Positions 2,323 to 2,517 of a stretch of 14,967 nt of DNA are shown piece after piece. The stretch comes from a virus, in the UHGV virus genome UHGV-1809322; one strand, 5' to 3'. Each line of letters starts with the position of its first letter. Positions within the stretch are counted from its first letter, which is position 1. The notes beneath the pieces were generated by a model. The model searched no databases and had not been told where the DNA came from. It was given only the letters and a program-made list of their open reading frames with translations. Position numbers and translations under genes: made by a program.

Positions 2323-2357
2323 GGGAGGTGGTCACAAGGACCACCTCCCGTTTTTTT
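2323..2357 (+). terminator. Rho-independent terminator downstream of the methyltransferase gene
   Basis: Perfect 11-bp GC-rich stem GGGAGGTGGTC / GACCACCTCCC (2323-2333 / 2339-2349), 5-nt loop, then a T7 run (2351-2357), 7 bp after the stop codon. Confidence 0.75.
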
Positions 2358-2517
2358 ACTGCTTGGTATGCGGAATCACACCCTGAACTTGAAACTCGAT
2401 ATTTTGAGCTTCGAATTTGTAAACCTTAATGCTATCAGCCTTAAGGTTTACGCCTCCAAAAACAAGCAGGGCGAGAAAAGCAATAGCGAAAATCAACTGG
2501 TTTGAAACAGTTTTCAT
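2356..2517 (-). CDS. Small hydrophobic peptide (53 aa, MKTVSNQLIFAIAFLALLVFGGVNLKADSIKVYKFEAQNIEFQVQGVIPHTKQ); predicted signal peptide or single TM helix; function unknown
   Basis: Not in the supplied ORF track (too short). ATG at 2517-2515 is preceded by a strong SD (AAGGAGG, ~8 nt spacing). N-terminal hydrophobic stretch. TAA at 2358-2356 abuts the 2323-2357 hairpin. Confidence 0.4.
   Translation of the reverse strand: MKTVSNQLIFAIAFLALLVFGGVNLKADSIKVYKFEAQNIEFQVQGVIPHTKQ

Follow-up and report, generated by a model that had tools for sequence, protein, structure and literature searches.

A candidate type I toxin–antitoxin module of P1-like phage-plasmids and IncF plasmids: a small membrane protein gene with a predicted upstream sRNA

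Introduction

[quoted passage not shown] In ShoB/OhsC, TisB/IstR-1, Zor/Orz, and DinQ/AgrB, an sRNA gene precedes the mRNA on its 5′ side, with no overlap between the two (PMC8594479). In the TimP/TimR system, which occupies the ryfA locus of Salmonella and E. coli, the TimP protein is toxic only on overexpression and is tolerated at the endogenous level after deletion of TimR; a toxicity-independent role has been proposed for it (PMC7667032).

The locus considered here lies in a 14,967-nt stretch of the virus genome UHGV-1809322 (hereafter, the window). The window belongs to a distant relative of P1: its tail sheath protein is 41.5% identical to P1 gp22, and it also encodes PmgG-like and PAAR proteins. 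The original prediction described a gene for a small hydrophobic peptide in this stretch and listed several options for its role, namely a type I toxin, a lysis or holin-like factor, and an exclusion or moron peptide. Comparison of 10 diverged loci lends strong support to the first option, since a structured leader and a complementary sRNA with its own promoter and terminator accompany the gene, and disfavours a part in lysis. The gene is very probably an sRNA-controlled small membrane protein gene. That the module as a whole would act as a type I-like TA module, built in the manner of TimP/TimR, ZorO/OrzO, and TisB/IstR-1, is a reading by analogy to which we give a probability of about 0.65.

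The small gene and its product

A 53-aa ORF had been placed at 2356–2517, with no strand named. It is indeed present, on the minus strand (ATG at 2517–2515, TAA at 2358–2356), and encodes the peptide MKTVSNQLIFAIAFLALLVFGGVNLKADSIKVYKFEAQNIEFQVQGVIPHTKQ. The AAGGAGG Shine–Dalgarno (SD) sequence said to precede it at good spacing was found at 2532–2526 (minus strand), 8 nt 5′ of the ATG. When both strands of the 15-kb window are counted, AAGGAGG occurs once. Shuffles contain a mean of 1.33 copies, so about one per window would arise by chance, and it is the position of the heptamer alone that carries information. The size of the ORF is by itself equally uninformative, because as many as 55 ORFs of 30 aa or more are present in the first 5 kb.

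As had been claimed, the peptide is hydrophobic in its N-terminal half: residues ~7–23 are strongly so, with a 15-residue Kyte–Doolittle mean of up to 2.55. This single hydrophobic segment is followed by a 28-residue polar tail bearing the conserved motifs KA-S-K, FEAQ-E, and GV-P. Among seven aligned proteins, 17 columns are invariant, including FGGV, where the helix ends, and, within the tail, KA-S-K, FEAQ-E, and G-P. The AlphaFold model is confident for the N-terminal (transmembrane) helix only, and the C-terminal tail is modelled as a helix with a pLDDT of ~50–60. Type I toxins are small (<~60 aa) hydrophobic or membrane proteins, and the products of the loci compared, with 49–53 aa and one hydrophobic helix, are of this kind. 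Searches with the peptide against Pfam, NCBIfam, PHROGs, and PADLOC returned noise and no family match, and its motifs had no match in the literature searched.

The ORF was compared in 10 loci (the window, L001, L002, L008, L058, L060, L061, L063, L066, and L068), a small set in which some members are closely related; the locus L064/L065 was excluded because of a shorter leader and the lack of an identifiable partner segment (see below) within a short contig. Frameshifts and stops in orthologous regions, which according to the original prediction would speak against a gene, were looked for and none was seen: the frame is intact in all 10 diverged loci, with 49–53 codons, and the positions of start, SD, and stop are conserved. 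The proposed comparison of synonymous and non-synonymous sites gave pairwise dN/dS values of 0.08–0.44, with synonymous sites near saturation. Given the intact frame and these ratios, the ORF is a real gene under purifying selection. It might still be argued that the ORF is untranslated and that the conserved element is a non-coding RNA only, since between the window and E. kobei the leader is better conserved than the ORF (86% versus 63%). This explanation is scarcely credible, as dN/dS stays well below 1 in every pair, no locus disrupts the frame or displaces its start, SD, or stop, and at larger distances the ORF is conserved as much as the UTR or more.

Directly 3′ of the stop codon lies a GC-rich hairpin (2323–2349, minus strand), which is likely the 3′ end of the mRNA or a stabiliser of it; such a hairpin also follows the stop codon in the other loci, with a sequence that differs from locus to locus. 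On the other side, a gene for a Dcm+Dam fusion DNA methyltransferase with C5 and N6-adenine domains, resembling P1 Dmt, runs toward it (82–2316, plus strand). The terminator of the methyltransferase gene is the hairpin at 2323–2357, and its T-run overlaps the stop codon of the small ORF on the opposite strand, so one hairpin appears to serve both convergent genes.

The leader and the promoter of the peptide mRNA

A promoter scan predicts a sigma-70 promoter for the peptide mRNA at 2777–2804 (minus strand), consisting of TTGAAA (2804–2799), a 16-nt spacer, and CAGAAT (2782–2777), from which transcription would start near 2770. The −10 element GCA(G/C)AAT (GCAATAT in L068) is found at the same distance in 10/10 loci. 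From the predicted start (~2770/2769), a 5′ UTR of ~250 nt (2518–2770, minus strand) would precede the ATG. The 5′ UTR is homologous in the 10 loci and adopts a consensus fold of 50 pairs, in which 93.5% of alignment cells are paired as against at most 48.5% when the partners are slid by 1–3 columns. Both sides change in 21/50 pairs, a level matched by 0/500 shuffles, and the single-sequence fold of the window leader has a z-score of −2.6. RNAalifold additionally drew a long-range 3-bp helix (columns 7–9 with 239–241), which is invariant and uninformative, and the covarying helix 1 described below was used instead.

The SD lies within a small hairpin, CUCC-GCAA-GGAG (feature 2526–2538, minus strand; hairpin 2538–2527, AAGGAGG 2532–2526), which is helix 9 of the consensus fold. 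Pairing in this helix extends to 97% of cells, with a two-sided change in one pair, and the SD core is predicted to be mostly paired (probability of being unpaired at most 0.05) in 6/10 loci.

Farther upstream, 78 nt before the ATG, lies the predicted target of the sRNA, GACCCCAGCAAUCCAAGUUCAC (2596–2617, minus strand). Its 5′ part falls within a local hairpin (helix 7); its 3′ part, GUUCAC, is a possible pairing partner of the mRNA 5′ end. In this helix 1, the first six nucleotides of the predicted transcript, GUGAAC (~2769–2764), face GUUCAC of the target; two-sided changes occur in 4/6 pairs, and pairing extends to 87% of cells. Since GUGAAC is both complementary to and covarying with GUUCAC, the mRNA 5′ end appears to mimic the seed of the sRNA. 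Helix 1 may thus be self-masking, in a way that recalls the inactive primary transcripts of hok, tisB, and zorO.

Neither masking the target in silico nor deleting the first 30 nt shifted the predicted SD accessibility consistently across the loci. For this reason, a refolding mechanism is not claimed, and that pairing 78 nt upstream would stop translation is proposed by analogy.

The sRNA gene and its pairing with the leader

The original prediction called for a search for an antisense RNA overlapping the 5′ end of the gene. A complementary partner RNA was indeed found, but as the product of a separate upstream gene that does not overlap the mRNA: the 20–22-nt leader segment 2617–2596 recurs ~300 nt upstream, at 2903–2924, giving two copies in the window versus 0.16 expected. 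Such a partner segment is present 260–350 nt upstream of the leader site in 10/10 loci. Type I systems are recognised by an adjacent gene for a complementary sRNA, and a predicted gene of this sort accompanies the ORF in each of the 10 loci.

The candidate antitoxin sRNA of the window is ~176 nt long (2903–3078, plus strand), and its 5′ tail (2903–2924) is complementary to the UTR target. Its predicted promoter (2869–2896, plus strand) consists of TTGATC (2869–2874), a 16-nt spacer, and TAGACT (2891–2896). With 8/12 matches to the consensus, the promoter is weak, and owing to this score it was missed by the promoter scan. Its hexamers, however, stand out as conserved blocks around a variable spacer, and a TTGnnn/TAnnnT pair is found 4–9 nt before the complementary segment in 10/10 loci. 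Internal hairpins, including GAAGG-CCGCUAA-CCUUC (2994–3010, plus strand), are followed by an intrinsic terminator with a T-run (3050–3078, plus strand), and a strong intrinsic terminator lies 110–175 nt downstream of the partner segment in every locus. Both RNAs are presumed to be transcribed. The consensus fold of the sRNA contains 30 pairs, 21 of them with compensatory changes, and leaves the 5′ tail unpaired; the single-sequence fold of the window sRNA has a z-score of −3.58, with the first ~8–14 nt predicted to be unpaired. In sum, the structures of both the leader and the sRNA are conserved and covarying, and the promoter and terminator motifs are conserved as well.

The sRNA gene is outside the mRNA, ~130 nt upstream of its predicted start. 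It is divergent, on the opposite strand, in the window, L001, L002, L008, L063, and L066, and in tandem, on the same strand, in L058, L060, L061, and L068. In 10/10 loci, the sRNA and the leader can form an unbroken helix of 20–25 bp, which starts at the predicted sRNA nucleotide 1 or 2 and ends 67–79 nt before the start codon, with predicted duplex energies of −36 to −45 kcal/mol. In the six loci that can be aligned, pairing is complete (120/120 cells, against at most 49% in slid controls), with 8/20 pairs changed on both sides; in L066 and L068, the 25-mers are largely different and the pairing is kept. Matched changes have preserved the sRNA–mRNA duplex, which has also survived inversion of the sRNA gene.

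A repeated 20-mer might also be a pair of DNA operator sites with no sRNA involved. The two copies are DNA-identical in several loci, and one of them overlaps the promoter-proximal region, as such an explanation would have it. It is nonetheless extremely unlikely in view of how the copies differ and where they lie. The only non-Watson–Crick pairs of the duplexes in the 10 loci are nine G·U pairs, and these are all of the copy differences. Of the 12 types of difference possible, two preserve a G·U pair in RNA, and 9/9 are of these two, as RNA pairing predicts and identity of DNA sites does not. Moreover, the upstream copy flips its orientation and yet keeps a promoter before it and a terminator after it, the segment between this promoter and terminator has a covarying RNA fold, and the second copy is situated ~155–175 nt inside the transcript rather than at a promoter.

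Apart from the main duplex, the conserved sRNA hairpin loop CYGCUAA (window 2999–3005, plus strand) is complementary to the likewise conserved UUAGC loop of leader helix 6 (~2660–2650, minus strand). In L063, both loops are changed (GCGAA and UUCGC) with complementarity kept, and L061 is without the sRNA loop. These loops may make a second, kissing-loop contact, as a single compensatory event suggests.

Rfam searches, performed in the window at the gathering score and at E up to 10 and in seven related loci at the gathering score, found no family for the module RNA; elsewhere in the window they returned only C4 and isrK, and the matches near the module cover terminators only. A tRNA/tmRNA scan of the window gave no hit.

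Distribution and genomic setting

The same protein and variants 81–89% identical to it are encoded on ~96-kb E. coli and metagenome contigs, a ~55%-identical protein is annotated on two ~100-kb E. kobei plasmids, and relatives of 49–52 aa occur on Klebsiella IncF plasmids and other contigs; on the E. kobei and Klebsiella plasmids, PGAP labels the homologues as “hypothetical protein”. The module is rare: it was found in 5/72,556 plasmids, and a profile search of 1.84 billion representative proteins yielded four real clusters only. There was no match, by DNA or protein, in 50,697 phage records. A 20-nt SD-region pattern scan of genome contigs returned only chance matches in high-GC genomes, and pattern scans of viral contigs gave nothing or chance 16-mer matches, none of which aligned to the module. 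The carriers are P1-like phage-plasmids, Klebsiella IncF plasmids, and chromosomal contigs, and one copy adjoins a ParE toxin–antitoxin pair. The module thus moves between replicon types, and the view of the gene as part of a phage accessory region proved too narrow, for it is not phage-specific.

The same distribution bears on the suggestion that the peptide is a holin or another lysis-timing factor of a P1-like phage. A small membrane peptide in a phage-plasmid would suit such a role; its occurrence beyond phages, on IncF plasmids and at chromosomal sites without neighbouring phage genes, argues against it. The peptide, furthermore, contains just one hydrophobic segment and matched no PHROG significantly, its neighbours are the methyltransferase and accessory genes rather than an endolysin or spanin, and the module is missing from all of the phage records searched. 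A lysis function is therefore very unlikely.

Beside the module, a slot bounded by the sRNA terminator and the PAAR gene (window 3084–7126) is a variable cargo site among related P1-like phage-plasmids. In the window, it holds an immI-like operon and two orphan ORFs. The C4 antisense RNA (71 bits) and isrK (62 bits), at 4418–4605 (minus strand), immediately precede two ORFs, one of 162 aa and an anti-repressor-like one of 267 aa (3084–4372, minus strand), an arrangement (isrK-C4-ant) that corresponds to the immI-type immunity region of P1/P7. The orphan ORFs (4758–5351 and 5381–6910, minus strand) encode 197 and 509 aa with no Pfam or PHROG match, the 197-aa product beginning with a signal-like sequence. 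In L002–L007, the slot (1–2434) carries a solo Cas1 (PF01867) beside an AcrVA2-like protein (PF26125), and in L008–L011 and the E. kobei locus L001, it is without cargo genes.

The last 10 codons and the stop of the small ORF (2387–2356, minus strand) are an exact 32-nt protospacer with a canonical 5′-AAG PAM (2390–2388). The matching spacer is present in 135/5,426 complete E. coli genomes, where it is the trailer-most one of the iap-proximal type I-E CRISPR array; the module itself is absent from all 5,426 genomes. Since a natural E. coli spacer targets the putative toxin gene, the module could penalise CRISPR-mediated curing of its carrier.

Proposed mechanism and significance

According to the mechanism that we propose, an mRNA of ~450 nt (from ~2770 to 2320, minus strand) would carry the folded leader of ~250 nt, with the SD enclosed in its small hairpin and the 5′ end able to pair with part of the sRNA target. 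This pairing may act as a self-masking switch that controls the access of the sRNA or of ribosomes to the mRNA. The first 22 nt of the sRNA would pair perfectly with the leader at a site 78 nt before the start codon, and, by analogy with TisB/IstR-1, ZorO/OrzO, and TimP/TimR, this duplex may block ribosome loading at a standby site and/or trigger cleavage by RNase III. The peptide would not be made as long as the sRNA is present. Once the supply of the sRNA ends, for example, upon loss of the plasmid or phage-plasmid, the peptide would be synthesised and inserted in the inner membrane by its N-terminal helix (N-in, C-out), probably causing membrane damage. As a result, the carrier element would be stabilised or competitors excluded. 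Being self-contained, mobile, and tightly repressed, a membrane-peptide module of this kind fits an addiction or exclusion element.

The peptide could instead be an inner-membrane protein that is repressed by the sRNA without being a toxin. Its physiological role might be, for example, superinfection exclusion or the modulation of a host membrane complex, with the sRNA tuning its level. TimP, tolerated at endogenous expression without TimR and proposed to have a role apart from toxicity (PMC7667032), provides a precedent; besides, the strongly conserved polar tail motifs (FEAQ and KA-S-K) look more like a specific interaction surface than like a generic pore-former, and the window copy adjoins a variable slot for accessory genes. 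On balance this explanation seems unlikely, if by far the strongest of the alternatives. A self-contained module found among plasmids, phage-plasmids, and chromosomes with unrelated neighbours is better explained as selfish, and control at several levels (a sequestered SD, a folded leader, and a perfect duplex of 20–25 bp) is typical of dangerous products. A TA module therefore remains the preferred reading, and the chances are about even that it represents an undescribed type I TA family of Enterobacteriaceae, borne by P1-like phage-plasmids and IncF plasmids, in which inversion of the antitoxin gene and a self-masking mRNA 5′ end are combined, two features not described together elsewhere.

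If true, the new family would be a stabilisation or exclusion module for P1-like phage-plasmids and for clinically relevant Klebsiella IncF plasmids. The 10 natural variants of the sRNA–target duplex are a ready set of compensatory mutants, and they also offer orthogonal pairs for the engineering of RNA devices. Because its 5′ end seems to imitate the sRNA seed, the mRNA offers a testable model for the silencing of such transcripts. Annotation of the region should be supplemented with the 53-aa CDS and the sRNA gene.

Comparison with known type I systems

The resemblance to Hok/Sok of plasmid R1 and its relatives lies in a plasmid-borne peptide of ~50 aa with an N-terminal transmembrane helix and a C-terminal tail of the periplasmic type, in a folded mRNA with long-range pairing of its 5′ end, and in a presumed role in post-segregational killing. 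Yet the peptide is not Hok-like, as had been stated from the start: it gave no Pfam Hok match at E up to 10 and is without the conserved Cys residues of Hok. Nor is there an overlapping mok-like frame, and the antisense RNA, instead of being cis-encoded and overlapping, comes from a gene of variable orientation and has its target 78 nt upstream of the ATG.

With ZorO/OrzO, TisB/IstR-1, DinQ/AgrB, and ShoB/OhsC, the module shares an sRNA gene located upstream of the mRNA without overlap, ~20 nt of complementarity within a long structured 5′ UTR well upstream of the SD, a sequestered SD, and a small hydrophobic product. The toxins of this group, however, are single helices of 26–35 aa without a polar tail, and the 53 aa of the present peptide, 28 of them in a polar tail, put it toward the upper end of the size range of type I toxins. 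No homology to these four systems was detected with Pfam and NCBIfam toxin families or Rfam antitoxin families. The Rfam matches to OrzO-P (23 bits against a gathering score of 60) and AgrB (21 bits against a gathering score of 40) were rejected, as they cover only the terminator hairpin, on the wrong strand. No LexA box was seen by eye.

A match to ryfA (RF00126) was found neither in the window region at E up to 10 nor in seven related loci at the gathering score, and homology of the peptide to TimP was rejected at an hhalign probability of 0.2%. The present module differs from TimP/TimR in the size of the peptide (53 versus 38–41 aa) and of the leader (~250 versus ~145 nt), in the sRNA gene being either tandem or divergent, and in its residence on plasmids and phage-plasmids, while ryfA is a fixed chromosomal locus. 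In the timR-timP region of E. coli K-12 (L070, 2653356–2654158), a direct repeat of the same kind as in the present module, GCAGGTG(C/T)TTCACAGC, is shared by the sRNA gene and the 5′ UTR, and a second, timR-like copy lies between timR and ryfA.

Nevertheless, TimP/TimR is the closest analogue. TimP is a small inner-membrane protein with a signal-like hydrophobic N-terminus and a polar C-terminal tail (PMC7667032), a class to which the present peptide is predicted to belong. The predicted non-cleavable junctions are also alike, with Ala at −1 and Leu at −3 before Asp in TimP and L-K-A before D28 in the present peptide. In both cases, an RNA of ~300–450 nt has a long 5′ UTR (PMC7667032), with which an sRNA encoded upstream and ending in an intrinsic terminator pairs or is predicted to pair (PMC7667032), a likeness that speaks for a shared architecture and not for membership in one family.
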